From Eledone cirrhosa (Eukaryota), in contig OZ024743.1 of NCBI GenBank assembly GCA_964016885.1, positions 375,658,001 through 375,722,000 of the forward strand: DNA of 64,000 bases, in the 5' to 3' direction. The stretch's first letter is position 1; every line of letters starts with the position of its first letter. The position numbers and the translations under genes were made by a program. Positions 18,086 through 46,629 of this stretch are shown one piece after another. Under the pieces are notes generated by a model that saw only the letters and a program-made list of their open reading frames with translations, searched no databases and was not told where the DNA came from.

Positions 18086-20064
18086 TCTTCATCTTCTTCT
18101 TCGTTGTCTTCTTCTCCCCAGTCTTCTTTTTTTTCTTCTTCTCCCCAGTATTCTTTTTCTTCTTTTTCTTCCCAATCTTCTTTCTTCTTTTTCTTCTTTC
18201 TCTTCTTCCTTCTCTATCTTTTTCTTCTCTTTCTTTTCTCCTCCTCCTGTTTGTTTTTGTGTTTCTTCTTGGTCTTTGTTGTTGTTTGTGTCGAAATCAA
18301 TGTATTTCTTTCATCCAACTCAGAATATACCATGTCTAGTTGGTCCTTCATTACAAAAGGGGGACCACCAATCAAATTGCCTACTAAATTCTTTAATACA
18401 TTTATTTGCCCTCGTCTCAAAATCGATGCAGTTTTCCTTTTCTGCTGGAAGTGGGTGGGTGATTGAAGGTCAACAAATGAGGGGGTGGGGAGGGTAATCA
18501 ATATCATTTTGGTCACGTTCTCTACTACCTATAACTTTGATATCTTATGTATATATCGATAATGATCATTCATTGATAAACGAAGCCTGAAAAAGTATAT
18601 GCCTCACTCCGATCTAACAAATCAATAATGATTGCCTACATAGAGCAAAAGTAGAAGTATTTTGTTTTTCCAAAAGATGCTTAGTTAAGGATTAAAAAAA
18701 CATTTCCCACTATCTACAGAAACGTGTATGAAATATATTTTTCACCAGTGTAGCTTTATGACTTTATCTTGGTATATATAATATAGCTGAAGTTCTAAAA
18801 GTTAAGGTTTTCTTCTTATAGGAAACTATATAAATAATAAATTTTCTCTCCCAGGATACTGTGAAATGCTTCTTGTCTTGGAAAATACCGGAATATTTTT
18901 AAATGCTATATTCCAATATTTTGTGCTAAGACTTGAAAAATATCATAAATAATATCATTATATCTTATAGGGGAGTGGATTGGCAACATTAGTAGAGCGT
19001 CGGATAAAATGCCATTGTGGTATTTGTAATGGATCTTTACAGTACGAGTTCAAATCCCACCGGGATCAAATTTACTTCCATCTTTCCGGGGGTCAATAAA
19101 ATAAAGTATCAGTGAAGTACTAGGATTGATTTAATCAACTTTACCTTTGGCTCAAATTTGTTGGTTTTGACACTAAATTAAAAAATCAATGTTATTAGAA
19201 TTTATCAGAATATAAAATTAGAAATAGAAGCTTTCGCCGTATGTTTTACTGACTAAAGACATTTTAGCCTAACAGTGGGGTTTAGAACCCTCTAAGCAAT
19301 GGGAAATAATGAGTATTGACGTATATTGGCGTCGAACCTACATTACACCAATTTTCGCCATTTTTATTTTGTATGTCTGTGGTCTATTCGTCGTGTTTGT
19401 CTTAATATTATTTCCACTGTCCGGTCTCATTCACATGTCATTTCAAAGAGGGAATCACGATTTCAAAATGAACACATTTCATCGAAACAAAACTTAAACT
19501 TAATTATATTAACCAAGAATAATGTAGTTTCAAATGATTTCTTTTGCTGGAGAATACAAGGCTATGGTATTATAAACAAAATAAACGAAAAACTTATTTA
19601 TTTGTATGGATTAACCAGTAACTCCTGATGGAGCTGTAGAAGTGGCATGATGATATACATTGTGTCTTGCTGAGCCCAACCCTCTCCAGGTCTGAATAGA
19701 GCCAATTTCTTCCCGAGAAAGAGAGAGAGTGTGTGATAGAGAGGCAGTAAGAAAGAAATACAGGGGAAGAATCGATCCCAGTACATGGTTGCTAGTTTTT
19801 TATCGAAATGATTTAAGGGAAACTTGACCTCGAAAGAATTGTAACTGAGAGCTAACAGAAAGCCGAACCGAATACTGCAAAGCATTCTGTCCGTCTTTCT
19901 AACGACTCTGCCAAATCACCACCTATCCCATTCATTTAGAATCATTGAAAAGATCCTGATTTCTTCATTTATTTATTCATGTCTCAAAGACTTCTTGCTT
20001 CTTTTGTACGTTACATTTCCTGTTATTTCTTTCTATTGCAGATCAGGTGAAAAGAATAGGTGAT

Positions 20065-20156
20065 ATGGAGAGGTATTACCCGGTCCTAAGGGCAGCTGTC
20101 TTAATTACCCTTACGATCATTACTCTTTGTCATGCTTCAGAGATTTCCGAATCAAG
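20065..20156 (+). CDS. Coding exon 1, signal peptide (MERYYPVLRAAVLITLTIITLCHASEISES)
   Basis: Acceptor ttctattgcag ends at 20041; donor ag|gtaa; hydrophobic leader. The frame is open back to the acceptor, so an upstream start cannot be excluded. Confidence 0.75.
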
Positions 20157-21317
20157 GTAAAAATCATATAAATTTTATTTGCTTCTAGATGACTGAATAA
20201 GTGGTTATGGCTGTGCGCAGATTTGATTTTAGGAGCTATCTTCGATTTTTTTCAAAATAAAATGTCGATTTTTCTAGTACGAGTGGATTTTTTGTGTTCA
20301 TATAATATATAAACAAATCAATATTCTACTAATGTTGTCATCAACGGTGCACAGGAACACCAACGTTCGATTCCCGATAGTGTTTCTGTTCACTATTTTC
20401 CATCTCCAGGGGGTACTCTATCCGAATTATTCAACTATAATTCATAGTAATGCTTTGTTTCTAAAAAAAAAAAAAAGTTTTATTATCCTTCCTCTTCTCC
20501 CTCTTTCTATTTCTATTTCATCTTTTATTTTTCATTCTATCTTCTGATAAATCACTAGTGTCCTACTATATAAAGCTTTAAACTCAAATTTCTTCATTGT
20601 ACTGTGTCGTTTGCGTTGTTATTTCTGTTTCCTTTTTGCATCTCTCTCTCTATATATATATATATACACACATATATATATATATATATATATGCATAAG
20701 TTATATTTAATTTGTTGGATTCAACAAGCTTAAAGGTTTTATAACTGATATAAAGCACTCAACAAATTACTGGAGTAAATATTCAATAAATGGAAACTAT
20801 ATTTATAAAACCATAATTATTTTATTATATATATTCAAGGGCAACCAAGGCAATTTTGGTGCGCTTTCATCAGATAAAATACAAAATATGTTTTATAAAT
20901 GTTGACATACCCGTAGAAAAACAACCTTGACAGTTGAAGGTTCGCTGGATAACGAACCTTCAACTGTCAAGGTTGTTTTTCTACGGGTATGTCAACATTT
21001 ATAAAACATATTTTGTATTTTATCTGATGAAAGCGCACCAAAATTGCCTTGGTTGCCCTTGAAATATATATAATAAAATAATTATGGTTTATAAATATAG
21101 TTTCCATTTATTAATATATAGGGCGGTGGATTGGCAGTGTCGGTAGAGGGTCGGACGCCATGCTTTCCAGCATAGTTACGTCCCTTTACGATCTGAGTTC
21201 AAATCCCGCCGAGGTTGACTTTGCCTTTCATCCTTACGGGGTCGATAAAATAAAGTACCAGTAATGCACTGGGTAATTGCTGGCCTTGTGCCAAAAGTAG
21301 AAACAATTAATATATTG

Positions 21318-21357
<40 letters not shown>

Positions 21358-24300
21358 TTCTAAGAATATCTACCAACCAACAATTGTTTCTGCTTCTGTA
21401 TGTATGTATGTATGTATGTACATAAGTCGGGGTAAAGTACCCCTGGAGATAGAAAATAGAGGACAGAAACTCCAGCGGGAATCGAAAATTGACGTTTTTT
21501 GTGCACAGTTTATGACAGTATTAGTGGAATATTCATTTGTTTCATAAATGCATTTGTTAGGAAAGATCCAGTTCATCACTTAACTATATCACTGGCATGT
21601 ATTTCATTAATCATATAGAACAAACTAAGTAGATTTCATAGAGATATGAATATACCAATATACCGTAGCCACGGGGTGACTCGTGCCTTGTGAAAGAAAG
21701 AGGGTAGACGGAAACTGCTTGGAAGCCCATCAGATGGACGACTATACCTATAAATTCAAAAAGCCAGCCTTGTCAACTACTCTGTCACATTAAATCTCCC
21801 TGAGAATTACGTTAATAGTACACGTGTCTGTGAAATGTTGAGTCACTTGCACGTTAATTTCACGAACAAATTGTTCCGTTGATCGAACAACTGGAAGACT
21901 CATCGCCGAAACTAACGGAAGTCCATTCCACTTTTCAATGTTTCAATCCTTAATTCAATCATTCCCCAACATGTGTGAATGTCATTACAATATATTAAAT
22001 ATTATTAGTTTAAATTAATTATAAAAATATTAAAATTTTACGTTGAATAAATCAAGGAAATATCCTAATTATGAACATGAACATGCAATAATTGCTTGAA
22101 CAATTAATTTATAATATGTAATGTAATTTGTAGGTGGTGAATTGGTAGAGTCGTTAGAACGTTGGATAGAATGTGTTGCAGTATTCAGCTCTCAGTGCTC
22201 TGTGTTCAAATCCCGCCCAGGTCAACTTTGCCTTTCATCCTTTCGAGGATGTGCTTAAATCAAAAACCAATATAATTCCCTTAATAATTATTGAGCCTCT
22301 ATGATTGGTTTTTCCGAGGTTATGTGCTCATAACACAATGAAAGGAAAGTTGTTCTGTTTTAATATAACAAACTTGATTTAATTTAATTTGACTATAAAA
22401 TTTACTAATTTGTCAATAAAATATACTTAACCCTTTTGACACCTCCACGCCTTAATATCTTTTGGTAACTAGGAAATGTTAGTAAATTGGGTCACTTAAT
22501 CGAGTGTTTATGGAACAATCGAATTATTAATGAGCTGCTAGAAATATGGTGGGTTTAATGAACACAGAAGCCTGCTAACAACGGTTAAAATGCTTTGTGT
22601 TGTTCGTTCAAACTCTCTGTGCTCTGAATTTAAATCCTGCCGAAGTCAACTTTGTCTTTTATCCTTTTGGGGTCAATAAAAATAGTACCCAGGGTCGGAT
22701 TTAATGGGGTGCAAAGATGTCAATTGTCCCGGACCTCCTGCAATGGGGAGGGGTACCAGCGACACCCGTAACAATTTATTTGTTCCCTCAGCTGGGCTTT
22801 TTAGTTTTAGGATGGTTAGAATTTTTCAATCTAATACCTGTATGTATAACTTTTCAATTACTTGCGCCAAGCTAACTTTGATATGTAAAATTGTGGGATT
22901 TGCTGTGTATTCTAATTGTTTGTGTATACCCCCCCCCCCCCCCCTGAAATGCCCCGGGATCCCCAAGGTCTAAATCTAACCCTGATAGTACCACTGCATT
23001 ATTGGGGTCGCTTCTTCTTCTTTTATATACCTTTCTCACTTCCTCTCTACCACTCTCTTTCGGTCCTCCTTTTTGTAATAAATTGGTGACCAGACCTGGA
23101 GAGAGAAGGCTGATCTCTGCCAGGTTTAAAATACCGAAGACACACCGTATGACATTACAGCGGCCCTCCGACTCTACCAGGAGTTACGGGTCCATACATA
23201 CACATGCTATGAACAACAAGTTCTCCATCGGTTAATTCATTCGGTTTAATCTATAAAAACGAAAGAAATTATAAATATAAAGAAATATAAAGAATTCAAG
23301 TCAGTTGGAGTTGAAATTTAAGTGGTCTTTATTATGTTACAGCTATCCGTATGGATTCCATTTTTCTTGCTTGATGACGGCAGATAATGAATTTTCTTTA
23401 CTTTTCTTCACCCTTTTTTCTATTCTATTTAAATATGAAACGCAATAAGATCTCGAGGTTAGAGGAATTTAAATATTTGCTTTGGCATTTTTTCAATGAG
23501 CAATGAGAATTCTTTCAGACACCATAATTATTCCTTCTATTTAGTGTCAGTAGAAATTCCTGCTAGAAGGCACTTTATGAAGGCCTTTTAAGACGCCATG
23601 ATTCATAAAAGAAATAACTATATGGAAAGGAAAGTTAATCTAATTATTTTTGTTGTGTGTTAAGTTTTAAAATATAAAAAAATAAGTAGTCAGGTTTAAA
23701 TCTGATTCAGAAGCAAAAAAAATATCTCGTAGAAATTCTATATTATATTCTATAAAAAAAATTTGATTAACTGTTATTGGTTAAATGAATGTTGCTAATG
23801 GAAGTGAGAAACATTAGTTACTTCCTACAGACATTTTTATTAGATAGAATAGCTGATGTGTGAGAAGAGTTCAACAGCAGATGAAGTAAACTCTTGGGAT
23901 TGACCAGGACTGGGCAGAGTTCACAATGAACATGTAGATTATCTATTTGAAGTGAGATTCAATGCCACAACGTTAACAGACCTGCCAACATTTAAAAATC
24001 TAAACGGGAAGTACCAGAAAAAAAGTGTTCCAAAATGGAGAGAAATAAGGCAAAATGAGGAGATTTTACATAATGAAAACTATACGGATTTTCACAACAG
24101 AAGACATCTCTCACCCACCCCAAAGTGCGTGGAAGATCTCCCCGTCGGACGGGGAGAGTTGGCAGGTCTGACGTTAAGGAACCCCTCAATGGTTATGTGA
24201 GCAACATATATATGTATTTCGTGTGACCGAATCAACGAGGGAGTCTCTGTTATGTCTTAGTCCGAGTTTATGTATAGTTGTAGGAGCTGTGATTGTTAAG

Positions 24301-25703
24301 CATGACTTTCATATCTGTGTAAAACAAATTATCTTTTTTATAGAGATCATAATGTTTGAGGGGATGCAACGGGAGAGGGACCAAGCAAAGGATCCAGGTT
24401 TGGTGTGCTGATGAGTAAAGGCCTTGGATTACGGTGAACTCTGAAGGAAGAGAAGGATGATTCAGGAACGATGTGTGAAATGTATTAGAGTCGGAAATGA
24501 TGTAGGATGGGCTCTGGTTTTGTTGGGTGTCAAGGTGGAAGGTGAGGGGGAAGATAATAGGATTGAGCACAGGGTTGGATTGTGACCTTGGGGGCCCAGG
24601 GAACTTCAGGTTTGTGAGGGGCCCTCATACACAGCAAACCTCCCAATTTTACATATCAAAGTTAGCTTGGCGCAGGGTTGGATTGTGACCTTGGGGGCCC
24701 AGAGAACTTCAGGTTTGTGAGGGGCCCTCATACACAGCAAACCTCCCAATTTTACATATCAAAGTTAGCTTGGCGCAGGGTTGGATTGTGACCTTGGGGG
24801 CCCAGAGAACTTCAGGTTTGTGAGGGGCCCTCATACACAGCAAACCTCCCAATTTTACATATCAAAGTTAGCTTGGCGCAGGGTTGGATTGTGACCTTGG
24901 GGGCCCAGAGAACTTCAGGTTTGTGAGGGGCCCTCATACACAGCAAACCTCCCAATTTTACATATCAAAGTTAGCTTGGTGCAGGGTTGGATTGTGACCT
25001 TGGGGGCCCAGAGAACTTCAGGTTTGTGAGGGGTCCTCATACACAGCAAACCTCCCAATTTTACATATCAAAGTTAGCTTGGCGCAGGGTTGGATTGTGA
25101 CCTTGGGGGCCCAGAGAACTTCAGGTTTGTGAGGGGCCCTCATACACAGCAAACCTCCCAATTTTACATATCAAAGTTAGCTTGGCGCAAGTAATTGAAA
25201 AATTATACATACAGATATTAGATGAAAAAATTCTAACCAACCTAAAACTAAAAAGCCCAGCTTATGGGCACATCCCATATACTGTAGCTGTAATCCAGAG
25301 ACTGTGAGTTAACTGAAACAAACAGGAACCTCCGTTGGGTATACACCGCAATTTTTTTTATCTATTCTGCACCGTTACATGTATTGAGTACTCCTTTGAA
25401 TAGTGATTATCCCCATTTTCCGACCATAGACATTATATATATATGTGCGTATGTGTGTGTATGTGTAAATCCCGGGTTCAATTGGGAGTAACCAAAGTAA
25501 ATAAGGTACTCAATACATTAGTAGAGTGTAAACATCATATTTAATATAGAAATGGCTTCTACAGGACTAGAACTGTTTCATTCAAAAGAAATCGTCAGGA
25601 AAGGGCTTTCCTGATGATTTCCATTGAATGAAACAGCTCTAGTCCTGTAGAAGCCATTTCTATATTAAACATGATATACATATGTATATATATATATATA
25701 TGC

Positions 25704-25776
<73 letters not shown>

Positions 25777-28700
25777 AAGAGAGAGAGGTTTAGGTATACA
25801 AGAATAGGTATGTTTATAATGCACATATTTCAATACACATTGAATATACATGTATACATGTGTGTGTGAGTGTGTATAATAACTCAAGTAAAACATATTT
25901 GTACCATATTATTCTACAGACGCGCAAAGTTCACAATTCAATAATTGAATAATTACTAAGATTTCAATTTACATGTTTCCTCTATTTGTTTTTATTTCAG
26001 GTCAAAAGTCATACAAAACCTGACCGACGGGTATGACAGTGGTATTTCTCCTCATTTTGATTTGGGTGAGTCTCGGCTGCTTTCTCTTAAAACACGATTG
26101 CTCCCCCACAAAATAATCGTTGACGCTGTTCACCGTCACACACGCACTCTCTATTGACGGTATCTTCGCCCTCCCACATCCTACCTACCCCATCATCATT
26201 CCTCTTTTAACCTCTACCCCTCTCACCTTCCATCTTGACACCAAACATATCCATTGCGCCATCAACCTACGTCACTTCCGATTCTGATACTTCTCGCACG
26301 TCTTTCCTGAATTCCCTCCCCTTTCCTTCAATGATCACCGTAATTAGAGGCCGTCGGTTCCACAGTTTATTCACCCCTGACCACATCAAACCTTTTGGTT
26401 AGGGCGCTGTTGGGCTTACCATCATAATTGTTTCTGATTTAGGCACAATGCCAGCAATTTTGGGGAAGGGGAAAGTCAATTAAATCGACCCCAGTATGTT
26501 ACTGGTACTTTATTTTTATCGATCCCGCATGAATGAAAAGCAAAGCAAACCTCAACTGGATTTGAACTTAAAACGTAAAGGGACGTAACTATATGCCGCG
26601 AAGCATGTTGTCGCTTTACGTTCTAAGTTCAAATCCTGCCGCCGAGATTAGCTTTTCTTTTCATCCATAAGAAGTCATAACTGTTTCTACTTTAGGCACA
26701 AGGCCAGCAATTACCCCAGTGCATTACTGGTACTTTATTCTATTGAGCCCGTAAGGATGAAAGGCAAAGTCAACCTCGGCAGGATTTGAACTCAGATCGT
26801 AAAGGGACGTAACTATGCTGGAAAGCATGGCGTCCGACTCTACCGATACTGCCAATCCACCGCCCTATAATATCGTAGGGTTAGTTTCTAGACCAACCGG
26901 ATTGTTTGTTGTGTTCTTGAGCAAAACACTTCACATCACGTTGTTCCAGTATATTCATCTGAAAATGAATACCAGCAGTAGTTGAGAGTTAACCTTGCGA
27001 GGGACTAATGTCCTGTCCAAGGCGCGGGGAGTATTATATCCACAGTCACTTATCTCTGATGAAACCATGATAAGCATCGGACCTGATTACCCTTTGCTTG
27101 CTTTCTCTCCCGTTCAAGACTCTCAAACATTATGTTCTATAAAAATATAATCATTTGTTTTACATAGATATCGAACTTTGGGCAAATACGGTGAAAGTCT
27201 TGCTTAACAATCACAGCTCCTACAAATATACATAACCTAATTCAAACTAAGACATAACAAAACAAAGTAGAAACTCCCTCGTTGGTTGGGTCACACGAAA
27301 TACATACATATGCTGTTCACATAACTATTGAGGGTTTCCTCAACGTTGTGGTACAACTCTTTGTTGCTAGCTGAATGGACTGGAGCAACGGGAAGTAAAA
27401 TGTCTTGCTAAAGAATCCAATGCGCAACCGGGAATCGAACTCACAACCTTACAATCGTGAGTGTAATACGCTAACCACAAAGCAACACGCCTTCTTATTT
27501 ATTTATAGTGAATAGGCAACAGCACTGAGTTAAACTGGGCCGTCTAATTGGTATGACAATGCATTTGTTAGATACAGGGTTATTTAATAAATAATGCACT
27601 CACATTTATTGATGATTCGAAATGTAATGTGAGGTTTTGTACCTTTATCAAGATGTAACAATGTAACAACAACAACGATAGTTTTTGCCTCGTCCTGAAT
27701 TGAACACTTAGGTTTTATCTCCCCCTGGGCAGAAAAAGTGGAATCATTCTGACAAATTTTGATTCTTTTTGAAATCTCCTCATGGAAATTAATACCCCCT
27801 TCCTCTGTACATGGGAAGAATTAATAGCTTATAGCTATTTGTATTGAATACAAGCCAGGACTCAGCTAAACTGGTAAACCTAATTTCAATAACAGTGCAT
27901 TCATTGCCAAGATAGCTAATTAATTAATTAATAATGCTCACGATGGTTTTATTGGATAATTTTAGCTATAATGGAAGTGTATTTCTATTGAGGTAACAAT
28001 AACATTTTAGCTTCACCGTGAAATAAAACCAAATATAAACAAATCTTTTTATCCTTTCGTAGGCGAAAAATTTGTGATCGGTCTTATAAGTTTCATGCCT
28101 TGTTTGAATCTCATCAGAAAACAAGTACGCCTAACCTCTGTCTATTTCATGATAATTGTTTCTACTTTTGGTACAAGGCCAGCAATTAACCAGTGTATTA
28201 CTGGTACTTTATTTTATCGACCCCCGTAAGGATGAAAGGCAATGTTAACCTCGGCAGGATTTGAACACAGAACGTAAAGGCTCGTAACTCCATGCTGCAA
28301 TGCATGGCATCGGACCCTCTACCGATACTGCCAATAATTGTTTCTACTTTTAGGCACAAGGCCAGCAATTACCCAGTGCATTACTGGTACTTTATTTTAT
28401 CGACCTCGTAAGGATGAAAGGCAAAGTCAACCTCGGCGGGATTTGAACTCAGATCGTAAAGGGACGTAACTATGCTGGAAAGCATGGCGTCCGACTCTCT
28501 ACCGATACTGCCAATAATGGTTTCTGATTTAGGCAGAAGGCCAGCAATTTGGGGGAAAGGGAAAGTCGATTAAATCGACCCCAGTGCATGACTGGTACTT
28601 TATTTTATCGACCCCGTAAGGATGAAAGGCAAAGTCAACTCGGCGGGATTATATAATATCTTTTCTTTCGCCAAATTACAGCAGGTGTTTGTTTATTTAT

Positions 28701-31700
28701 TTCATTTTATTTTCTTAATTTACAGATGTGCCAACAGAAGTTAAAGTTCATATTTATATTAGCAGTTTCGATTCAATTCGGGAATCGGCTATGGTGAGCT
28801 GACTTTCAATTAAATATTTCATTGTTATTTGTTTCTTCTTCTTTCTTTTCTTTTTTTCTCTTTATTTACAACTTGTGGCCCCGTGCCGTAAATAATGATT
28901 TATAATTTAAGCATAAGTTCAACGAGAAACTTGATAATAACAACACCTATACTTTATTGGTACTTTATTTTACTGACGCCAGAATGATGAAAGGCAAACT
29001 TGTCGCTCTTAAGGTGCAATTTTTTTATTTGAAAGTAGTGAGTTTTTCCAACACTGGAAGTCGTGAATGGTATGTGTTTTAAGCTATGTTCTGATCTAAG
29101 CTTGATTGTATTTATTTCTGAACTAGAATGAAGTGTTGAAGTGGGTATGTGTATGTTAGCCACAGGGTGTTGAGTTCTAGCTTGTTGTTGATTTGGAAGT
29201 TGAGTTTAGCTATTAGAACAGATTCTTTGATTCTGAGATTGCCAGTATTTCCATCCATGAATTCGCTAATAGATATTATTTAGTTATTTGTGTTTGAGTG
29301 TATGTGGGCGACAACAGATATCCTGCGCCGAAGTAGTTGCCTCAATTATTCTTTTAAGGAAGAGATTTTATCCCGAAACAGAAAGAGCAATAAAGAACTC
29401 TAAGGTAACATATAGGACCGTACCATTTTTATATTTCTAACATCTAAGACTATACCAGTTTTGTATGTCTATCATCAAGGATATACCATTTTTAGAAAAT
29501 ACTATGTTTTACTAGAAGGCTACAGCAATGCAAATGAGGCATCAAATGTTAAGAATAATTCTAATTAAGATGTTAGAATGTTACTTTGGAGTTGTTTAAT
29601 ATATTTCGGAATAAAATTCCCCCCTCAAAAAAATAATTTAGGAAACTAATTTGGAGAAAGGTATCTTGTGTCGTTCTTATGTTGTCCTGTTTTTTAGTTT
29701 GAAAGTGGTGAACATCTAGGACTATACCATTTTTGGTATTTCTACTATCTAGAACTATACCATTTTTTGTATTTCTACTATCTAGGACTATACCATTTTT
29801 TGTATTTCTACTATCTAGGACTATACCAATTTTGGTATTTCTACTATCTAGGACTATACCATTTTTTTGTATTTCTACTATCTAGGACTATACCATTTTT
29901 GGTATTTCTACTATCTAGGACTATACCATTTTTGGTATTTCTACTATCTAGGACTATACCATTTTTGGTATTTCTACTATCTAGGAATATACTATTTTTT
30001 GTATTTCTACTATCTAGGAATATACTATTTTTTGTATTTCTACTATCTAGGACTATACCATTTTTTGTATTTCTACTATCTAGGACTATACCATTTTTTT
30101 GTATTTCTACTATCTAGGACTATACCATTTTTGGTATTTCTACGATCTAGGAATATACTATTTTTTGTATTTCTACTATCTAGGACTATACCATTTTTTT
30201 GTATTTCTACTATCTAGGACTATACCATTTTTTGTATTTCTACTATCTAGGACTATACCATTTTTGGTATTTCTACTATCTAGGACTATACCATTTTTTG
30301 TATTTCTACTATCTAGGACTATACCAATTTTGGTATTTCTACTATCTAGGACTATACCATTTTTTGTATTTCTACTATCTAGGACTATACAATGAACTTC
30401 ATAATAACGCAGAAATGGACTGATCCCAGATTAAACTACACCGGGACAAGTAATGCAGAGATTCTGGAACTCGACACTCGCATCATGAACTGTATTTGGG
30501 TACCAGATTTATATTTCGCTAATGAGAAAAAAGCATCCTTCCACGAGGTGACAGTACCAAACAAGATGATGCACCTCCATCGGAATGGAACAGTGGTATA
30601 TCGTGCGAGGTAAATTGAATGGGGGACATTGTTGTTGTTGTTGTTATCATCCTCTTGGTCGTTGTCGTCGCATGGTATCTAGAGTGCCGTCATATGCTCG
30701 TGACCCTTTACCAGATTGACAATGCGATAGGCGGCCAGACAACACTTTATTGTTAACTAAAATAATTGTTTCTTCTTTTGGCACAAGTCCAGCAATTACC
30801 CCAGTGCATTACTGGTGCTTTATTTTATCGACCCCGTAAGGATGAAAGGCAAAGTTAACCTCTGCGGCATTTGAACTTTGATCGTAAAGAGCCTTAACTA
30901 TATACTCAAAGCATGGCGTCCACTCCACTCTACCGATTTTGCAAATCCACCGCCCTTATTATTGTTAATTATAATAACTAGCAGAAAAACCACCCTTCGC
31001 GTGGTTTTCTGCTAGCATGTGTAGTGTGTATATTGATATTATACGCAAGTATATATACATGTAGATATGATACATGTGTAGTGTGTATATTGATATTATA
31101 CGCACGTATATATACATGTAGATATAATACATGTGTAGTGTGTATATTGATATTATACGCAAGTATATATACATGTAGATATGATACATCAAATAAAATC
31201 GTAATTGACAATATACACAGAAATTGAACGAAGACTACGTTACACTCTCTTATTTAATCAGTAACGTAATCCACGATACATTAAAAAAAAGGCTATTATA
31301 TATGAACTGCATTAGGAGAAAATTAGTGACAGAAAATTAGTATGTTTATTTAAGCGATCGCCACCGGAAGTGTTGACATTTGAAAATTTTAAAGAAGTGA
31401 ATCTTTAAATATATAATAAAATATATTTAATGAACAGCCACGAAATTTAGTAGATAAATTATGTAATATTCATTCATTATTTATTCAAAGTAATCCAACT
31501 TATTTTACTAATGGGATAAAAAAAATTATAAACCGCACGCAATCCCGCACTCCTTACTTTATTATAGTTTAGATAATAATTACTTTGATATCTCAGTCAT
31601 TGATGTTATTTAACCGGAAAATTTGCCTACCTGCAACCTCAGATATTCATGACGTATCAGAGGGTCCTTGCTGATTTCAGTAGGCATGCCTTCTGGAGTG

Positions 31701-32501
31701 TCCCCCCCCCCAAAAAAAGGGGGGGGGGCTAGACTAATATTTTTTAACCAGCCTTGGAAGCTCTTCGGGATAGTACGTAGTGTCCCTATGATGATGGGGA
31801 CGACCTTGATCTCATGACAATTCCAAATCCTTTCAGTAACCACCTTAGATCCTGGTACCGGTTAATTTTCTCTTTCTCCTTTTCTTGCACTCTTGTGACA
31901 AAGGGGCAAGCTACATTTATAATCAAGCAAGATCTTTATTTCCGACAAAAACCACCAGGTCAGGCCTATTGTGTTCTAATCCTTTGTCTGTTTGTATCCT
32001 GAAATCCCACAGCATCTTCACCCGATCGCTTTCTATCACTGACTCTGGCTTATGCTCCTCATACCATTTCTCAGAATGAGGTAATTTGTACAGTTTGCAA
32101 TAATAATAATAATTGTTTCTTCTTTAGGCACAAGGCCAGCAATTAGAAATGGGGGAAAGTCGATTAAATCGATTCCAATGCATTACTGGTGCTTTATTCG
32201 ATCGACCCCGTAAAGATGAAAGGCAAAGCTAACCTCAGATCGTATAGTTACGCCCCCTTACGATATGAGTTCAAATCCCGCCAAGGTTAACTTTGCCATT
32301 CATCCTTACGGGGTCGATAAAATAAAGTACCAGTCACACACTGGGGTTGATTTAATCGGCTCCCCCCACCCCCCAAAAAGCATTGCTGGCCTTGTGCCTA
32401 AAGTAGAAACAATTATTATTATTATTATCATCAAACTCGGCTATGCTTGCATATGTGCATGTCTATACAAAATAATACATTCTCTCTTTCTTTCTCTTTC
32501 T

Positions 32502-32579
<78 letters not shown>

Positions 32580-35500
32580 CTTTTCCAGGTTGACAATGAC
32601 ATCGGCATGTCCTATGACACTTGAGAAATTCCCACTTGATACACAGATGTGTTCAGTTGTCATTAAAAGTTGTAAGTATTCTCCTCTTCACCACTACAGC
32701 AAGTACTCTCTCTCCTCTTCACCACTACATACAGCAAGTACTCTCTCTCCTCTTCACCACTACATACAGCAAGTACTCTCTCTCCTCTTCACCACTACAT
32801 ACAGGAAGTACTCTCTCTCCTCTTCACCACTACATACAGAAAGTACTCTCTCTCCTCTTCACCACTACATACAGGAAGTACTCTCTCTCCTCTTCACCAC
32901 TACATACAGGAAGTACTCTCTCTCCTCTTCACCACTACATACAGGAAGTACTCTCTCTCCTCTTCACCACTACATACAGCAAGTACTCTCTCTCCTCTTC
33001 AACACTACATACAGGAAGTACTCTCTCTCCTCTTCACCACTACATACAGGAAGTACTCTCTCTCCTCTTCAACACTACATACAGCAAGTACTCTCTCTCC
33101 TCTTCACCACTACATACAGGAAGTACTCTCTCTCCTCTTCACCACTACATACAGGAAGTACTCTCTCTCCTCTTCAACACTACATACAGGAAGTACTCTC
33201 TCTCCTCTTCAACACTACATACAGGAAGTACTCTCTCTCCTCTTCACCACTACATACAGGAAGTACTCTCTCTCCTCTTCAACACTACATACAGGAAGTA
33301 CTCTCTCTCCTCTTCAACACTACATACAGCAAGTACTCTCTCTCCTCTTCACCACTACATACAGGAAGTACTCTCTCTCCTCTTCACCACTACATACAGG
33401 AAGTACTCTCTCTCCTCTTCAACACTACATACAGCAAGTACTCTCTCTCCTCTTCAACACTACATACAGCAAGTACTCTCTCTCCTCTTCACCACTACAT
33501 ACAGGAAGTACTCTCTCTCCTCTTCAACACTACATACAGCAAGTACTCTCTCTCCTCTTCAACACTACATACAGGAAGTACTCTCTCTCCTCTTCAACAC
33601 TACATACAGGAAGTACTCTCTCTCCTCTTCACCACTACATACAGCAAGTACTCTCTCTCCTCTTCACCACTACAGCAAGTACTCTCTCTCCTCTTCACCA
33701 CTACATACAGGAAGTACTCTCTCTCCTCTTCAACACTACATACAGCAAGTACTCTCTCTCCTCTTCAACACTACATACAGGAAGTACTCTCTCTCCTCTT
33801 CAACACTACATACAGAAAGTACTCTCTCTCCTCTTCACCACTACATACAGCAAGTACTCTCTCTCCTCTTCACCACTACATACAGAAAGTACTCTCTCTC
33901 CTCTTCACCACTACATACAGAAAGTACTCTCTCTCCTCTTCACCACTACATACAGAAAGTACTCTCTCTCCTCTTCACCACTACATACAGAAAGTACTCT
34001 CTCTCCTCTTCACCACTACATACAGGAAGTACTCTCTCTCCTCTTCACCACTACATACAGCAAGTACTCTCTCTCCTCTTCACCACTACAGCAAGTACTC
34101 TCTCTCCTCTTCACCACTACATACAGGAAGTACTCTCTCTCCTCTTCACCACTACATACAGGAAGTACTCTCTCTCCTCTTCACCACTACATACAGAAAG
34201 TACTCTCTCTCCTCTTCACCACTACATACAGGAAGTACTCTCTCTCCTCTTCACCACTACATACAGCAAGTACTCTCTCTCCTCTTCAACACTACATACA
34301 GGAAGTACTCTCTCTCCTCTTCACCACTACATACAGGAAGTACTCTCTCTCCTCTTCAACACTACATACAGGAAGTACTCTCTCTCCTCTTCAACACTAC
34401 ATACAGCAAGTACTCTCTCTCCTCTTCACCACTACATACAGCAAGTACTCTCTCTCCTCTTCACCACTACATACAGGAAGTACTCTCTCTCCTCTTCAAC
34501 ACTACATACAGGAAGTACTCTCTCTCCTCTTCACCACTACAGCAAGTACTCTCTCTCCTCTTCACCACTACATACAGGAAGTACTCTCTCTCCTCTTCAA
34601 CACTACATACAGGAAGTACTCTCTCTCCTCTTCACCACTACATACAGCAAGTACTCTCTCTCCTCTTCAACACTACATACAGGAAGTACTCTCTCTCCTC
34701 TTCACCACTACATACAGCAAGTACTCTCTCTCCTCTTCACCACTACAGCAAGTACTCTCTCTCCTCTTCACCACTACATACAGGAAGTACTCTCTCTCTC
34801 CTCTTCAACACTACATACAGGAAGTACTCTCTCTCCTCTTCAACACTACATACAGGAAGTACTCTCTCTCCTCTTCAACACTACATACAGGAAGTACTCT
34901 CTCTCCTCTTCAACACTACATACAGGAAGTACTCTCTCTCCTCTTCAACACTACATACAGGAAGTACTCTCTCTCCTCTTCAACGCTACATACAGGAAGT
35001 ACTCTCTCTCCTCTTCACCACTACATACAGAAAGTACTCTCGGCTCCCAAATGACAGAGGCTGGAATAAGCGGGGGGAGGGTTAGAATAAGCGGGGGGGT
35101 TAGAATAAGCGGGGGTTAGAATAAGCGGGGGTGTAATAAGCGGGGGGGTTAGAATAAGCGGGGGGTTAGAATAAGCGGGCGGTTAGAATAAGCGGGGGGT
35201 TAGAATAAGCGGGGGGTTAGAATAAGCGGGGGTGCAATAAGCGGGGTGGTTAGAATAAGCGGGGGTTAGAATAAGCGGGGGTGCAATAAGCGGGGGGTTA
35301 GAATAAGCGGGGGTTAGAATAAGCGGGGGTTAGAATAAGCGGGGGTGCAATAAGCGGGGAGGTTAGAATAAGCGGGGGTTAGAATAAGCGGGGGGTTAGA
35401 ATAAGCGGGGGTTAGAATAAGCGGGGGGTTAGAATAAGCGGGGGGTTAGAATAAGCGGGGGTTAGAATAAGCGGGGGGTTAGAATAAGCGGGGGGTTAGA

Positions 35501-37066
35501 ATAAGCGGGGGGTTAGAATAAGCGGGGGTTAGAATAAGCGGGGGGTTAGAATAAGCGGGGGTTAGAATAAGCGGGGGTTAGAATAAGCGGGGGTTAGAAT
35601 AAGCGGGGGTTAGAATAAGCGGGGAGGTTAGAATAAGCGGGGGTTAGAATAAGCGGGGGGTTAGAATAAGCGGGGGTTAGAATAAGCGGGGTGGTTAGAA
35701 TAAGCGGGGGTTAGAATAAGCGGGGGGTTAGAATAAGCGGGGGTTAGAATAAGCGGGGGGTTAGAATAAGCGGGGGTTAGAATAAGCGGGGGGTTAGAAT
35801 AAGCGGGGGTTAGAATAAGCGGGGGTTAGAATAAGCGGGGGGTTAGAATAAGCGGGGGGTTAGAATAAGCGGGGGTGCAATAAGCGGGGGGTTAGAATAA
35901 GCGGGGTGTTATAATAAGCGGGGGTTAGAATAAGCGGGGGTTAGAATAAGCGGGGGGTTAGAATAAGCGGGGGTGCAATAAGCGGGGGGTAGAATAAGCG
36001 GGGGTTGTAATAAGCGGGGGGTAGAATAAGCGGGGGTTGTAATAAGCGGGGGGGTTAGAATAAGCGGGGGTTAGAATAAGCGGGGGGTTAGAATAAGCGG
36101 GGGTTAGAATAAGCGGGGGCTAGAATAAGCGGGGGTTGTAATAAGCGGGGGTTAGAATAAGCGGGGGTGCAATAAGCGGGGGTTTAGAATAAGCGGGGGT
36201 TGTAATAAGCGGGGGGGGGTAGAATAAGCGGGGGGGGGTTAGAATAAGCGGGGGTTGTAATAAGCGGGGGGGGGTAGAATAAGCGGGGGTTGTAATAAGC
36301 GGGGGGGGGTTAGAATAAGCGGGGGTTAGAATAAGCGGGGGGTTAGAATAAGCGGGGGGTTAGAATAAGCGGGGGTGCAATAAGCGGGGGGGTTAGAATA
36401 AGCGGGGTTTGTAATAAGCGGGGGGGAGAATAAGCGGGGGTTGTAATAAGCGGGGGGGGGTAGAATAAGCGGGGGTGCAATAAGCGGGGGTTTAGAAGAA
36501 TAAGCGGGGCTTAGAATAAGCGGGGGTTAGAATAAGCGGGGGTTAGAATAAGCGGGGGGTTAGAATAAGCGGGGTGTAGAATAAGCGGGGGGTAGAATAA
36601 GCGGGGGTTGTAATAAGCGGAGGGGGTTAGAATAAGCGGGGGTTAGAATAAGCTGGGGTTGTAATAAGCGGGGGGGGGTAGAATAAGCGGGGGTTAGAAT
36701 AAGCGGGGGTTGTAATAAGCGGGGGGGGGGTAGAATAAGCGGGGGGTTAGAATAAGCGGGGGTGCAATAAGCGGGGAAGTTGGAATAGGCGTGGGGTGGA
36801 AAACCGGTAATCTTTCAAGGTTGTCGCTGTTGATATTTTTGTAAGAACCAGAATTAGTTGTTTAGTTTACATCTTGAGACCTCTAATCCATCCTATTTAT
36901 TTTATAACGTATGGGATTTCTAATAATGTACTTTTTTGTCGTGTATAATGTTTTTTAATGTATAAAGAAAATTAATTGTCACAGAAATGCCTTGCCCGGA
37001 CTTGTGCCTCGGGAAGAAACATTCTAGGTGCAAAACCATGGTCATTGGTGACCGATGGGTGCCTTG

Positions 37067-37113
<47 letters not shown>

Positions 37114-39425
37114 TTTATTCTCACATTCAAATGTGTCATTGTTTACCTTGTTGCAGTTGTTTACACGCCAGATAATGTAGTCTTCCGCTGGGAACAAGGT
37201 AATGCCATTACATACAACAAGGAAATGGAAATGGCCCAGTTCGAAATCGGAGAAATTACAAACGCAGACTGCACCGGACACTTTGAAGGTATGGGTTTAT
37301 TATGCATGTTTGTATGTGTGGTGTGGAGCATGGGGAGCGTGTGTCTTTGTGTACGTGTCTGTGTGTGCATGTGAGCGTGTCTCAATTCTCGCCTTAATCG
37401 GGTTCATACAACACATGCCAGGAGAGCCCATCATCTCCATCGATGGGGAATGAAAGACAGCCCAGCATGTGACCGTGGGGATCCTGACCAGACAGTACTA
37501 CATGTTGTTCGGGATTGCCCCCTCCCCCCTCAGACGTTTTCCCGGCAGCCTTGAAGCACTCCATAATGCTGCAAATGACACTTTGGTCTAGCTCACCTGT
37601 CTTGACTCGCCTTTCTAACTATTGTACATGTCATACGACAAAAAAAAAGAATTCTCGTCTAGATCAACATCGCTTTTCACCCTTCTGGGATGGATGAAAT
37701 AAAGTATCACCTAAATACTGTACTCTATATAATTGACTTCCCACTTTTCCCCAAAACTGCTTGCTTTATGCTAATGATAGAAAGAACTAGACCACCCGTT
37801 ACCCGCTGGGGTCATGTTCACTTAATTTTTTCTTTTAAATCATGTTCACTTAAAATAATTTTTAAATAATTAAATATACAGACATGTATATAATGTAAAA
37901 TGAAATTTCAATCTACTCTCTCACAACCACTATCTCTTTCTCTCTATCGTTCTCTCTATTTATGAAGGTACCCAGAAAAAACCCCGAATCTCGGGACCCG
38001 TGCTCCGATTTACGCGAAACTTGTTTTATTCCATTCGTATTCCCATTTCAGGGGCAACTTCCTTTCAAAGTATGTTCCCCTTATGCGTCGTTTTGGCTGC
38101 ATCAAATTACAGACAAGCGCACAATCACCTAATTTTAGTAGTAGATTATCTTTTTATCTTATTTCTATCTTTTTCTTTCTCTTCAGAAAACAACTTTACC
38201 TGTATCCAAGCCGACATTTTCCTAAATCGGAAATTTGAATTTTTCCTACTCCACGTATTTATCCCTAGCACTTTGATTGTTGTCATTTCTTGGGTATCCT
38301 TTTGGTTACCAATTGATGCTGTTCCCGCCAGAATAGCACTGGGTAGTACAACCGTTCTAACAATGATCACGCAACGTCAAAGTACAGCCATATCTCTTCC
38401 TCCAGTGAGTTACATCAAAGCCATCGATGTGTGGACAGTATCGTGTTTGGTATTCGTGTTCGCGGCATTACTAGAGTACGCTTTGGTCAGCATCTACTCA
38501 AGACGAGAAGTTAAACGGATTATGATAAAACTTGTACCTTCAAAAGAAACAAAGGGAAGTTTTATCAAATCGAAATCAGTGAGTATTTCTTCTTCTCTCT
38601 TTTTTGCCAAAGAGTATGATACAGTAATATCTGCATAAATACTAAGTGTGTGACAGAAACTGCACCAACGTGTATAAATATATACACATTTAATATATAG
38701 CTATGTAAATATACCAGAAATTAAGAATTTTCCTGGAAATTGAAAACATGATAAACATCTTTCATCGATGTTCAGATCTAATGGGACCCTCGTCAGAAGA
38801 CCTATATATCATCCAATGAACCACAACGAAGCATGTATTTGATCGGTATATATACCCATTCACTCTTAGTAGTATTCTGAAATGGACATGTTAATTTGTA
38901 TTACTGCACGTGTTGGTAATTTATATATATATATAATTGTTTCTACTTTTGGCACAAGGCCAGTAATTACCCAGTACATTACTGGTACTTTATTTTATCG
39001 ACCCCGGCGGGATTTGAACTCAGAATAGGAAGGGCCGTAACTCTATGCGTCAAAGCATGACGTCCGACCCTCTCCCGATACTGCCAATCCACCGCCCTTA
39101 TATATAAATGCAATGTATATATAAGCAAGTATTGCAGCAAGAAAAATATAAACATCGATGAGAAGTGAGATTAGGGATTAATTGCTTTAACATATGTTTC
39201 TGTGTCTACCTTCACATACATGTGTGAGTGTGTTGAAGAGGTTCACTTTAAATTCAATATATATAGATAGAATAGATAGCTACTAGAGGCTCATCTAGAT
39301 AAGTAAACCTCTGTGACGAGGTTTCAAATATTGCAGGGTTTTGGTAGATATATATAAGTATATAGGTATATAGTACAACAATATAAAGGCTAAAAAAATT
39401 TAAAGCTCGATATAATTTTATAGGC

Positions 39426-39487
<62 letters not shown>

Positions 39488-42400
39488 AATTTAAAGTTAA
39501 CTTTAAAGTGAACCTATTCAACACACGTCTTTTCTTTTACTATGAAAAATTATCTAAGTTGAGCACATTTTTTAATGTATATAAACTGTGTGTGTGTGTA
39601 ATACATATAGTGAAAGATGGACAACAGATGCCTCAGTGAGGAATCAGACCCTGTATCCCTAGAATGTATATAAAGGATAAATAGTATGTTACAAATGTCC
39701 TTGCGCAAAAAAATATAGAAGTTCTTCATAGAATAATTAAATATATATTGTTACAGTATTGGTAGTTGAATTAATATTTCATGATTTACAGTTGCATATA
39801 CCGAACATCAAATATACATCAGAAATATTTATATGTTACAGAATTAGTGCTTGTAATGTCAACGGATGATTAGGTAGGCCCATAAAGCATATGGAGGGCG
39901 TAGAGTCTTGTTTCTGTAAGGAAATTAATAAATTCTTTAGACGAGATAATCATGATTGGGAATTCTAAAATGTTGTCATATTTTAAAGTGTTTAATCAAT
40001 TGTATTTATATGTTTTCATAATGCTTCTCGGCTTTGTAAATTCACTTTAATCTGATGATCTTTTGTTTTTAAAATACGCTAGAAGGAATTTTCTGAAGTG
40101 TCTAAATGTGTTGAAATTTTCAGACATCATATTTGTGAAGATTTTGTACTAAGAAATTATTTTCAATGCTACAGAAATTACAAGTTATCTCGTGCATGTA
40201 TGGCTTGCATTTTCAACAAGTGCAGACATTTAGAGAAATTCCTTCCGGCAGGAAAACCTCAGGACACGAGAGATTAAGTAGATTTTAAATACCAAGACAC
40301 ATCGTGAAAACAAGCACACAGTTCATATCTTTTAATATTGGAAAAATTTCAGAATTAACAAACTAAAATATCTCGTCGAATTGAATTAAACGACCGACCG
40401 AAAACAAAGAGTTTCACCACCTTACACTATACTATACATGACTGCTAATCAAAAGCCCTTACTAAACTGTATCCTTCAGCATGCGGAGATTCTTCCCTTC
40501 TCTAGTTTTGGTATAGACAAGAAGTTTTATATCATAATAACTGCATATATAGTTATTTGAATATGACAAAGCCGGCCATTAATCGCTCGTATACATGAAA
40601 CAGACTGGCTGATATGCAAATCTGGTTGATCAGTGGGTCTGCTGATATACAGATCTGACTGATCAGGCAGTCTGATAATATACAAGACAGGCCGATCAGT
40701 CACTGTATATTTTAGAAAATATCATATATTTTCACTAGTTCTGACAGTTGGAAGGTAAGCAGTATACTGTAGTGATGAAGGGTTACCCAGAAACATTCGT
40801 GTACATGCCAATACAAGAGCAAGAATGATGGGGGCCATTCTACTGACATGGCTTATAAGAGGCTGTCCATTCTGAGTTCAAATCACGCCGAGGTTAACTT
40901 TGCCTTTCATCCTTACGGGGTCGATAAAATAAAGTACCAGTAATGCACTGGGGTAATTGTTGGCCTTGTGCCAAAAGTAGAAACAATTATTATTAATATC
41001 GAGAAACTTAGATTACATTTATTGCATTCAGCCATGGAGAGCAATACACTATTTGTTTTATATATATACTAGCATTAAAGCCCGGCGTTGCTCGGGGTCA
41101 TTAAGTTACCAAAGTTAGGTTGCAGCACTTTTTTGTCTGCCAGGCACTGGGTGAATGAATTGCAGACCTGGAAGCATGAGCTGCGCCAGCAGTGACAATT
41201 GTAGTTTCGCCTATGGATATTATCTCTGTGCAAAAAAGTGTTGAAATTTATTGTTTCACAGTACTTGCGCAACACGCGAGTAGACGATGCCAGCCGAACA
41301 ACAGAGCTGCGATGGAGTTGTTCTGCATGGTTGTCTGTGTGTTTTCTAAATTTAAGACAGTAGGGAGGGTTGTGATATGAGGGAGAGTTAGCTGTTGTTT
41401 CTAGCAGGTTTAGTGACCTCATAGAGGATATGTGTTTTCTAAATTTAAGACAGTAGGGAGTGGTGTGATATGAGGGAGAGTTAGCTGCTGTTTCTAGCAG
41501 GTTTAGTGACCTCATAGAGGATATGTGTTTTCTAAATTTAAGACAGTAGGGAGTGGTGTGATATGAGGGAGAGTTAGCTGCTGTTTCTAGCAGGTTTAGT
41601 GACCTCATAGAAGATATGTTTTCTAAATTTAAGACAGTAGAGAGGGGTGTGATATGGGGGAGAGTTAGCTGCTGTTTCTAGCAGGTTTAGTGACCTCATA
41701 GAGGATATGTTTTCTAAATTTAAGACAGTAGGGAGGGGTGTGATATGAGGGAGAGTTAGCTGCTGTTTCTAGCAGGTTTAGTGACCTCATAGAAGATATG
41801 TTTTCTAAATTTAAGACAGTAGGGAGGGGTATGATATGGGGGAGAGTTAGCTGCTGTTTCTAGCAGGTTTAGTAACCTCATAGAGGATATGTGTTTTCTA
41901 AATTTAAGACAGTAGGGAGTGGTGTGATATGAGGGAGAGTTAGCTGCTGTTTCTAGCAGGTTTAGTAACCTCATAGAGGATATGTGTTTTCTAAATTTAA
42001 GACAGTAGGGAGTGGTGTGATATGAGGGAGAGTTAGCTGCTGTTTCTAGCAGGTTTAGTGACCTCATAGAGGATATTATTGTTTATCATCTATATATATA
42101 AAACTGACTGCACGCCTAACGAAATTTACAGATACATATATTTTAAATAAACTTATATAATTTTTGCTTTTTTTACGAAATATTTGCTAGTTTTACGTAG
42201 TCTTTAAATAGACTTGTTTTCAAGTAAAAATTATTGTGTTAATGTTATTTTAAACGCTGAGAAAGCCAGCGTAATTTTTTTAATTTTTGCACGCAGACGC
42301 TCAATGTAAACAGAACAAAGGGAAATAACTGATCACTTATGCTCAAAAATCGATACATTATATTCGATTTCGTCAGATAGGGCGGGTCAATTTGAAATAT

Positions 42401-42533
42401 TTTTTTCCGATGTCTTCGCTAGGGCTCAATGTACAAGTATAGCAATTTCGGTGCAATTCCGTGAGAGATTCTAAGAGGAGATGTGTGCCAAAAATCGATA
42501 GACAGACAGACAACCACAGTTTTATATATATAG

Positions 42534-42605
<72 letters not shown>

Positions 42606-42752
42606 GTATACACACATCATAGAAAATTGAAGCTTTCACCGTATTTTTTACTAAAGAAATTTTAGCCTGATAGTGGGGTTTAGAACCCTCTAAGAAATGG
42701 GTTCTATTTTCTATTCAAACTCGCTCACTAGTTTAAAACAAAGTATATATAT

Positions 42753-42831
<79 letters not shown>

Positions 42832-45800
42832 ATAATAATAATAATAATAATAAATGTGAAGACTAAAATCCAAAGAGGGCTCGATAAGGAGGATAAATAT
42901 ATATCAAATATATAAGGGACCCTAGAGCAAATATTTATTAAAATAACAGATTAATGTTTAAGCAAAGAATCGCTGCGTTCACCCTTAACGGGATCTTCTG
43001 AAACTAAAAGAAAAAAGAAAAATAAACCAATCTGTGAGCGCAGAAGTAAATATTCCGAAAAACGTTGCAACCGAAGGAAAACAGGAAGATGATACTTTGG
43101 TTCGTGAAGACGTTCCCTGGCAATGAACGGAAAAAAGCGAAGATAATACGTCGTTATGTGGATCGGTGAGAACAAATACACGCAAATACAAAATCACGTT
43201 TATTGTAAAATAGAGTCGTAAACTAATATTCTATTTCTCGACTTCGGAGTTAAGAATAATGTAAATAAATTAGTAGAACGAAAATGTCATAGGTTATTAA
43301 AATCATAAAAGTAATAATAATTAAATATATACATACACACATCTATATACGTACATACACATGCATACGCGAAAACACCCGCCATACATGCACGTACACA
43401 TAAACACGCGCACACATACATAAACCCGCACGACACATGTACCCGTACACATACGAACGTATACACCAAATACACATAAAAAATATGTGTGTATATAATT
43501 ATATAAACGTATATAAGTAACACATTAATTACGTATATCACGCACACACACACACACACACATACCTACAGGTAAATACGCATATGTTCACCAAACGTAC
43601 GTATACCAAATCTCAATGTATACATATACACACCTTACATACGTGCAAACACGCATACACGCATACACACACAAACACAAAATACACATATACACATAAC
43701 CCTATACACATATACCAGAATATATAATATATACACCTATAACAAATACAAGCATATATACATACGAGAAAGTATACGTACCTCCACAAAACATACAGGT
43801 AAGGTATACTTACCTATACAAATAAGTAACGGTATAAACATGAAATATACTTAGCTACCACATCAAGACGTAAATTATCCGCGTATTGTTCGTACTATCC
43901 GTTAGGGTATAATGTGGGGCTGTAATACAGGAAAGATTTATGCAACTTGTGTTTACAAGCCGAAATTGCCTCAGATTTTTTGTTTAAGATTTGATCATTA
44001 GCGTAGAGTATTTCCAAGGCTTCAGCGGTGCAAAGATCGCATGGTCTTTTATTTCCGTTATACGATCTAGCCCTAGCTAGGATCTCCCAGTGTAACCTAT
44101 ATTGGGTGTGGTTGTCTTTTAGACTCCAGATATAAGCTGAAAGTGACGTCATATTCCTTCTTAAAGGGTTAAGAAAAGAAAGAGTGTGCATGTAAAGACG
44201 CTGCTTGAATCTATTGGCGGTTAACCCTATGTAGACCCTACTAGACGTGGGTGTTTCGACCTTACATTTGTAGACAATGTTACTGGATAGGTAGCAGTCA
44301 ACACGATTCCTACAATTACAGTTAGTACTAGCTACAGGGTTGTACGTGTTCCTACGGCTAAGTAATTTACTAAATTTGAAGTAGTGATATTATGTGCAAA
44401 GTTAGGAGTAAGATATTTTAATGATATTTCTATTAAAAATGTTATTATATTTATGTGCTGAGGCGAAATGCTTCTTAATTAAGGAGAGAAGATCTTAGCT
44501 AATGGTGGGGCCACCTCCATATTATATGGTGGGTTATACCATATAATGCGTCGGGATCTATTTTTCCTAGGTTTATGCTCATACTTAGTATATGCTACCT
44601 TATCGACAATTCCACACCGAGCAAGAGCTTAATTGTAATATGTGGAATGGTCGGTGAAAATATGCTCGTTTGTAGATAGACGGGAAAGCCAGGTTCTTTG
44701 TTATGCTGGCAGGATGGTTAGAATGCTTACTGATGTAATTAAGCGTATCATTCGGCTTTCTATTCGGGTAGTGCAAGCCATTCGACAAATTGAGGGTAAC
44801 GTCGAGGTAGTTTACGACCGAGAGGTTGGTCTCAACATGTTTGGAGAGGTTGAAGCCTTTAAAGAAGGCTGTGAGTTCTTTTCTAAACCTGTCGCAAGCG
44901 CGGGGACCACACTTTGTCATGGTCAAAAGACCGGCATCGTGGTACAAACCACCGCCCACATTAGGTAATTCTTCCCTGATAGAGAAAAGAAGGAAAAGGC
45001 CGATAAGATCTGTAACCTCCGCCGAATCGCTGGTGCCCATACTCACGTCGAATGGGGTACTATTAGATTTTTTTATCCAAATAGAGTCGTCGAAATTAAT
45101 CACCGACTTACGGGCATTGAGGATGACATCAACTTCGAAATCCTTAATCACCGTGAGCGTTTTAGCGAAATTGATAGCTTTAAGAAATGGTAAAGTGATG
45201 GAGGAGTAGTAGTTATTGATGTCGAATTGGATAAAACAGCAATGTTCCTTGTTGTATATGCCATTGAACCAATCAATCACCGCGAAAGAATTATTCCACA
45301 GTGCAAGAGGGGCCAAGCTTCCACTTTCAAGTATAATTCTATCTAAAATCCTTTTACTAAGTCTACCTAAATCAGACTTCGTAGGGTTAATTAGTCGAAT
45401 AGAAGGATTGTTAGCGAAATTGGGTTTGTGATCCTTCAGAGTAAAGTGGGAAGAAATAGGATCCAGAGGTTCAGTCCGGTCCTGGATGTTGAGTTCAGAA
45501 GTGGTTTTAAACCCAGCATCGTTGATGTCATTAATGACACTCCAATTGGTTTTCCGGTAATCCTTAGTTACAGCATTATGTAGCAGTTGATGGTAAGTAC
45601 TTCGTTCCACTTGATATAGATTACCAGTTTTGTAGGAATGGACGTGCACGGCATTAGAATCCATAATAGCACGAATCCTATTCTTCAGGTCCTGATGGAA
45701 GGAATTGCTCCTGTTCCGAAATTTGATACTCCGTATGAGTTCCAAGACATCGTTTTCGAAGGGTAGCAAAGCTGAGCTACTCGGAGGGTTATTATAAGTT

Positions 45801-46258
45801 TTAAACCCAAATTTATCCTGTTTATTGTCCGCTTTTTCCTGGTTATCGAAATAAAAGGCACGCCAACGCAACCTTTTAAGGAACGAATCCGTTTTTTTAT
45901 AACAAGTTTTAGATATGTCTTCCTGCTAGGTACGGGTATGTTCTTTGTAGAAATATTCAGGTGTTGTTTCTGCATGATGAATATAAGTCAATAGAGTGCT
46001 CAACCGAGAGAGCCAAATAGTAATAATAATAAATGTTGCCAATATACCGTATGTTTAATTAAAAACATTTAGAAGACTATTCGCTATCATTTTTAAAGTA
46101 GTGACTATGTCACTTACTTATATTTTCGGCAAAGGCTGGGAGAATGGCTGGCAGCTGTTTCTCGCTGACAGCTGTCAGCCATTCTCCCAGCCTTTGGTAT
46201 ATTGCCAAATATACTATACATACATTCATGTATACATAACTATTTCAGAGCACCAATA

Positions 46259-46350
<92 letters not shown>

Positions 46351-46584
46351 CAAAAGGTAATCAGAAATAACAATAAAATCAGTACAGTATATGGAAGGAA
46401 TATATTAGTTAGAACGCTTGAAATAGCAGGAAGAGGATCTTAACGTTTCCGACGCTAGTCCTTCACCAGAAGAAAGAATGAATATATATATATATATATG
46501 GTCGTTTTGGAAACCTCAACACTTGTTGAGGTTTCCAAAACGACTATTTTTTCTATTCCACAATGCTGCAAGCAAACTTTAACA

Positions 46585-46629
<45 letters not shown>

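Follow-up and report, generated by a model that had tools for sequence, protein, structure and literature searches.

We detected 20 tandem copies of a splice acceptor at the 3′ end of an intron in a 64,000-nt stretch of octopod DNA (hereafter the window; organism A), and our comparisons confirm that this array exists as described and ends at the authentic acceptor of a Cys-loop receptor exon (Table 1). The array is probably a mirage minisatellite, of which the last copy alone is used in the spliced message seen, and which would represent a tolerated by-product of slippage without a regulatory role.

Table 1. Positions in the window of the receptor gene, the acceptor array, and the associated repeats.
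Feature	Position	Strand	Remarks
Host gene	20042..46867	+	Eight coding exons recognised in the window; 415 codons without internal stop
Upstream exon, 68 nt	28726..28793	+	Donor GT at 28794
About three older, decayed unit copies	29404..29500	+	Also in organism B
Dispersed repeat	29490..29713		Separates the decayed copies from the young array; also in organism B
Young mirage minisatellite	29714..30390	+	20 units of 33/34 bp + 14 nt
Authentic 3′ splice-site AG, last of 21	30381..30382	+	GT..AG joint 28793→30383, run X4
Coding exon, 227 nt	30383..30609	+	Cys-loop ligand-binding domain PF02931, glycine-receptor-alpha-like

The acceptor array and its host gene

TRF reported a 33-bp period with 20.4 copies and 94% matches at 29714–30390, in which we recognise 20 full units (29714–30376; 17 of 33 bp and three of 34 bp) followed by the authentic site, in good agreement with the earlier note, which had claimed an acceptor amplified about 20 times at 29715–30390. 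The unit combines the first 8 nt of the exon, a pyrimidine-rich tract, and a TAG that is retained in all 20 units, and the locus thus presents 21 TAG acceptor-like sites, i.e., 20 decoys (AG ends from 29719 to 30349) and the authentic one (AG end 30382). The last unit extends through the used AG and 8 nt into the exon, and these 8 exon bases are also found directly 3′ of 15 of the 20 decoys. As the earlier note had stated, the last copy alone continues into the real exon, with the 21st TAG followed by the open stretch of 227 nt. The U-rich tract ascribed to the units is present in general, but the first decoy (29719) lacks a pyrimidine tract, scoring only −2.1 on the acceptor scale introduced below. 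The 20 full units fall into seven variants with a mean pairwise identity of 94.9%.

A search of the 3.0-Gb genome with the 33-mer of the unit, allowing up to two mismatches, returned 17 matches, every one within the array, and zero matches for the reversed 33-mer used as control. The unit is confined to the array genome-wide and therefore arose locally from the intron–exon junction. A dispersed satellite or a transposon as the origin of the unit was rejected, the unit being unique to this locus.

The exact number of 20 rests on the assembly, and no contig spans the array. It is very improbable that assembly error accounts for part of the copy number and that the true array is much shorter, a reading that draws on the lack of any spanning contig or read among those compared for organism A, and on the fact that runs X1–X3 come from one sample, perhaps the assembly's own source. 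Against this, the seven unit variants are arranged in irregular order, and DNA contigs from both flanks end at 29743 and 30361, within the first and the last unit, these contigs belonging to sample S1, which may itself be the assembly source. Besides, the summed depth of X2 reaches up to 41 within the array vs about 4 on the flanks, as expected for a real repeat.

The host gene shares 95–96% identity with Octopus proteins named glycine receptor alpha-1/alphaZ1-like and is intact, with an unbroken reading frame. Its reading is 95.7% identical to protein P0017, and sequences carrying the same name from Octopus vulgaris, O. sinensis, O. bimaculoides, and Argonauta belong to the cluster of the closest protein. 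The exon that follows the array matches PF02931 with an E value of 7e-16, and its best matches among solved structures are glycine receptor alpha subunits. The gene is not placeable by ligand from the passages of bioRxiv 10.1101/2025.04.02.646353 considered here. What had been called exon 4 is indeed the fourth of the exons recognised in the window, but it is at least the fifth of the mRNA, as the RNA-like contig extends about 570 nt 5′ of the first such exon. Codons 21–23 of this exon (30443–30451) read G-T-S in the window and in the X4 contig, vs G-M-S or E-M-S in orthologues, with Thr in place of the Met found in 15 of 15 aligned orthologous proteins.

Splicing across the array

In run X4 (organism A, sample S2), one contig of 2,440 nt with a depth of 93.4 joins 28793 to 30383 with GT..AG ends and shows zero differences over both exons (28726–28793 and 30383–30609). 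The kind of this run is unrecorded, and we treated it as RNA because the GT..AG joint is seen in X4 alone, being absent from the other three runs compared. No decoy joint appears among the X4 joints listed (15 of 17), and the X4 depth is zero in bins 29733–30344, which by itself is not evidence. The dominant stable mRNA is therefore a normal one that uses only the last copy, although this does not imply zero leak: X4 represents one sample from an animal of unrecorded array length, contigs drop rare variants, and nonsense-mediated decay (NMD) would deplete decoy products. For the junctions from donor 28793, this run yields a single contig at 30383, with rare or NMD-degraded forms hidden from view.

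We give almost no credence to the units acting as 16-nt microexons, delimited by a decoy AG and a GT inside each unit. There is one GT per unit, 16 nt after the AG, but its context is a poor donor match (by judgement, unscored), and 16 nt would shift the frame. Furthermore, the 15 orthologous proteins aligned all lack an insert at the 28793/30383 junction, on which ground exonisation or microexon use was rejected, and no such joint is among those listed for X4.

Read from the phase-0 donor, all of the decoys lead to a premature stop. As the earlier note had predicted for the 33-bp and 34-bp units, respectively, 17 of the 20 stop after 10 codons, at the TAG of the next unit, and the other three (29851, 30083, and 30183) shift the frame, stopping after 121, 103, and 79 codons. 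The last junction lies 834 nt downstream of the real exon start, and the decoy stops fall upstream of later junctions.

Acceptor strength was scored with a matrix derived iteratively from 80 predicted, unannotated control acceptors of the same genome, which makes the scores a rough guide only; the 80 control exons comprise 11 exons of Cys-loop paralogs and 69 of 138 kinase matches, hand-picked as likely internal. The real acceptor scores 10.2, at the 29th percentile of the 80 predicted acceptors. This value is equalled or exceeded by 11 of the 20 decoys, and 18 of the 20 score at least 5; among the control exons (n = 80), at most six upstream AGs score as high as the exon's own acceptor or higher. 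The decoy nearest to the exon is a weaker variant (5.8 vs 10.2), though nine of the 20 decoys are equally weak and its weakness may be due to chance. Four decoys match the real site over 50–55 nt upstream and 8 nt downstream. Neither the real AG nor decoy 2 has a yUnAy branch motif within 60 nt, and one such motif is located 41 nt before the first decoy. The decoy scores, the shared sequence, and the missing branch motif leave no intron-side signal that could set the last AG apart. RNA folding was rejected as an explanation for its choice (z −1.51, with 14 of 200 shuffles folding as well).

Many decoys share up to 55 nt of intron-side sequence with the real site, so that the choice is probably decided on the exon side. 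The last AG alone precedes true exon sequence with a donor 227 nt away, and the decoys would define exons of 260–890 nt padded with U-rich repeat. The classic experiments with duplicated sites are reportedly those of Reed and Maniatis. In human genes with competing 3′ sites, intervening sequences can act as repressors of the upstream one, according to passages of PMC2095810. A rare mis-splice would meet an early stop and would probably be removed through NMD, which may lower the cost of carrying the array.

Some leak is plausible, because more than half of the decoys score at least as high as the real site, itself middling. Nevertheless, we regard as rather unlikely a leaky array in which splicing occasionally picks the nearest decoys, NMD destroys the products, and longer alleles have slightly lower receptor mRNA, which is the tuning of the earlier note, whether under selection or not. 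Such leakage would agree with the decoy scores, with the premature stops of all decoys upstream of later junctions, with the under-reporting of decoy forms by steady-state contigs, and with the use of nearby pseudo-donors in IFI6 and CBS (passages of PMC1557585). On the other hand, the junction is crossed by one unbroken contig with no decoy joint listed, the exon-nearest decoy is of the weaker kind, and organism B is without a long array, contrary to what would be expected of a conserved device. It is quite improbable that a lineage-specific, length-variable array sends a measurable share of the pre-mRNA to NMD and thereby makes the dose of an inhibitory receptor depend on repeat length, the steady-state contig missing this because the products are destroyed. 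The suggestion of the earlier note that array length tunes the ratio of productive to NMD-targeted mRNA finds no support in the single spliced contig from one sample.

Origin of the array

The older degenerate copies that had been reported at ~29410–29500 were found at about 29404–29500, with 71–82% identity to the unit consensus (BLAST E 7e-8), and the coexistence of this old, decayed layer with the young array supports repeated expansion. The dispersed repeat of ~220 nt that separates the two layers occurs at about 40 other places at 72–79% identity. Inverted arms flank the old copies (29309–29378 and 29604–29673; 76% over 70 bp) and represent the dispersed repeat family, which often forms inverted pairs elsewhere.

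In organism B, one contig of 822 nt (run X5, depth 18.5) connects 29681 with 30344 by way of 32 homologous letters. There is a single upstream unit, with no pyrimidine tract before it, i.e., a 14-nt direct repeat 33 nt apart around a pyrimidine tract; up to three organism B differences in or near this unit are not visible in the alignment. The window thus has 20 units vs one in organism B, and the long array is not conserved in this one relative; a RAD-seq run (X6) has no reads in the array. Over 336 letters of intron, the two organisms show 47 differences and 6 gap letters, with two listed exon differences. In organism B the substitutions within the old copies are not the same, and at 29412 and 29447 they agree with the unit consensus.

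The array units are ~95% alike vs ~86% for the introns of the two organisms, and this greater likeness fits a young expansion, with no outgroup to root it. The single upstream unit and the shared decayed copies of organism B make two expansions likely, with the later one in this lineage, as judged from one relative. No outgroup roots expansion in organism A against loss in organism B, expansion in A being the simplest order.

We propose the following theoretical scheme. An old, short array of the junction would have been split by insertion of the dispersed repeat, so that three decaying copies stayed upstream and a single unit stayed next to the exon. After the species split, organism B would have kept this one-unit state, and in organism A the exon-adjacent unit would have been amplified by slippage or unequal crossing-over, possibly seeded by the 14-nt direct repeat.

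Minisatellites elsewhere in the genome

Six homogeneous arrays make up 10% of the window, and arrays with a period of at least 15 cover 6–15% of the flanks of the 80 control exons. The 14-mer of the predicted acceptor is repeated upstream within about 1 kb in none of the 80 control exons, and junction copies were detected at two control donors (L089 and L063). Junction-spanning arrays are therefore uncommon but not unique in this genome, and an enrichment of acceptor mirages is not seen in the 80 controls.

The first of these loci (L089; G000:C1:322457984-322460190, 1460–1870) is a donor-side mirage at a MAP-kinase-like exon, the last bases of which (in one copy together with the donor) recur in about seven decayed tandem copies 250–650 nt downstream. 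In the second (L063; G000:C22:283716-285892, minus strand), the end of a kinase exon and its donor are copied (1158–1277 and 1520–1639) as a single copy of 120 nt with 89% identity, 362 nt downstream. A further locus (L094; G000:C23:7239887-7242195, 488–976) contains about 21 copies of a pyrimidine-rich unit of 22–27 bp, 19 of them ending in TAG. In front of a receptor tyrosine kinase exon, this array ends ~40 nt short of the acceptor, with the junction outside the unit, and its TAGs score 5 or less vs 14.7 for the real site.

In the window, 68 copies of a 35-bp unit (32680–35041) start 8 nt past the donor of the next exon; each contains a pyrimidine run and a CAG, with a weak acceptor score (median 2.6). 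They are followed by a 16-bp G-rich array (35079–36797), and minisatellite sequence accounts for ~4.1 kb of this 4.5-kb intron. A very high-copy short interspersed repeat is also present at 28152–28640 (three copies in tandem), 30770–30930, and 32110–32420, with summed contig depths in the millions at the first two positions.

Comparison with known mirage and splice-site repeats

Control of expression by poison exons and alternative splicing coupled to NMD (AS-NMD) operates through unproductive isoforms with premature stops. Decoy use in the array would likewise give premature stops upstream of later junctions; unlike in AS-NMD control, no decoy isoform was seen in the contigs of the one sample, and organism B has no long array.

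Mirage minisatellites have been described in amphioxus, in the globin genes BflGb6 (3′ end of intron B12.2 and 5′ part of exon 2) and BflGb9, and in Adh3, troponin C, and PGBD5 (passages of PMC3087553 and of PMC3902484, the latter on Adh, troponin C, and PGBD5), and the same passages report that they do not disturb splicing. As in amphioxus, the array consists of homogenised tandem copies across an intron–exon boundary, with an AG in the units and regular splicing, and its unit size is within the 10–160 bp reported there. Four of five mirage features were found here, i.e., tandem arrangement, spanning of the boundary, a retained splice signal, and regular splicing in one sample (one X4 contig, in which rare forms are invisible). 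In contrast to the cephalochordate mirages, the host is a mollusc (an octopod), the copies number 20 vs three to six in BflGb6, just 8 exon bases are included per unit, there are two dated layers with a dispersed repeat between them, and length variation is seen between species only. No cephalopod mirage was found in the literature searched, mostly without subscription papers.

Human donor-side VNTRs are known from F7 intron 7 (37 bp, 5–9 units), IFI6 (6-16), CBS intron 13, LMNB2, and PDGF intron 4; according to passages of PMC1557585, F7, LMNB2, and PDGF use the authentic site exclusively, and in IFI6 and CBS the nearest two pseudo-donors are also used. Both there and here a minisatellite reiterates an authentic splice site and the exon-adjacent site dominates, but in the human genes the 5′ site is repeated and its first copy used, whereas here it is the 3′ site and its last copy. 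No counterpart of the neighbouring pseudo-site use of IFI6 and CBS was seen here.

Implications

If array length did change the receptor mRNA level, the locus would represent an acceptor-side splicing VNTR in an invertebrate, and nothing in the present data points to such a change. The array also provides a natural test case for 3′ splice-site choice: because the intron side is identical for up to 55 nt and there is no consensus branch point, a simple scan for the first AG, starting upstream, cannot explain the use of the 21st. Overall, these results extend mirage repeats to cephalopods, a finding of modest importance, at one locus where their history can still be read from an early layer now decayed, a relative with a single unit, and the 20 units present here.
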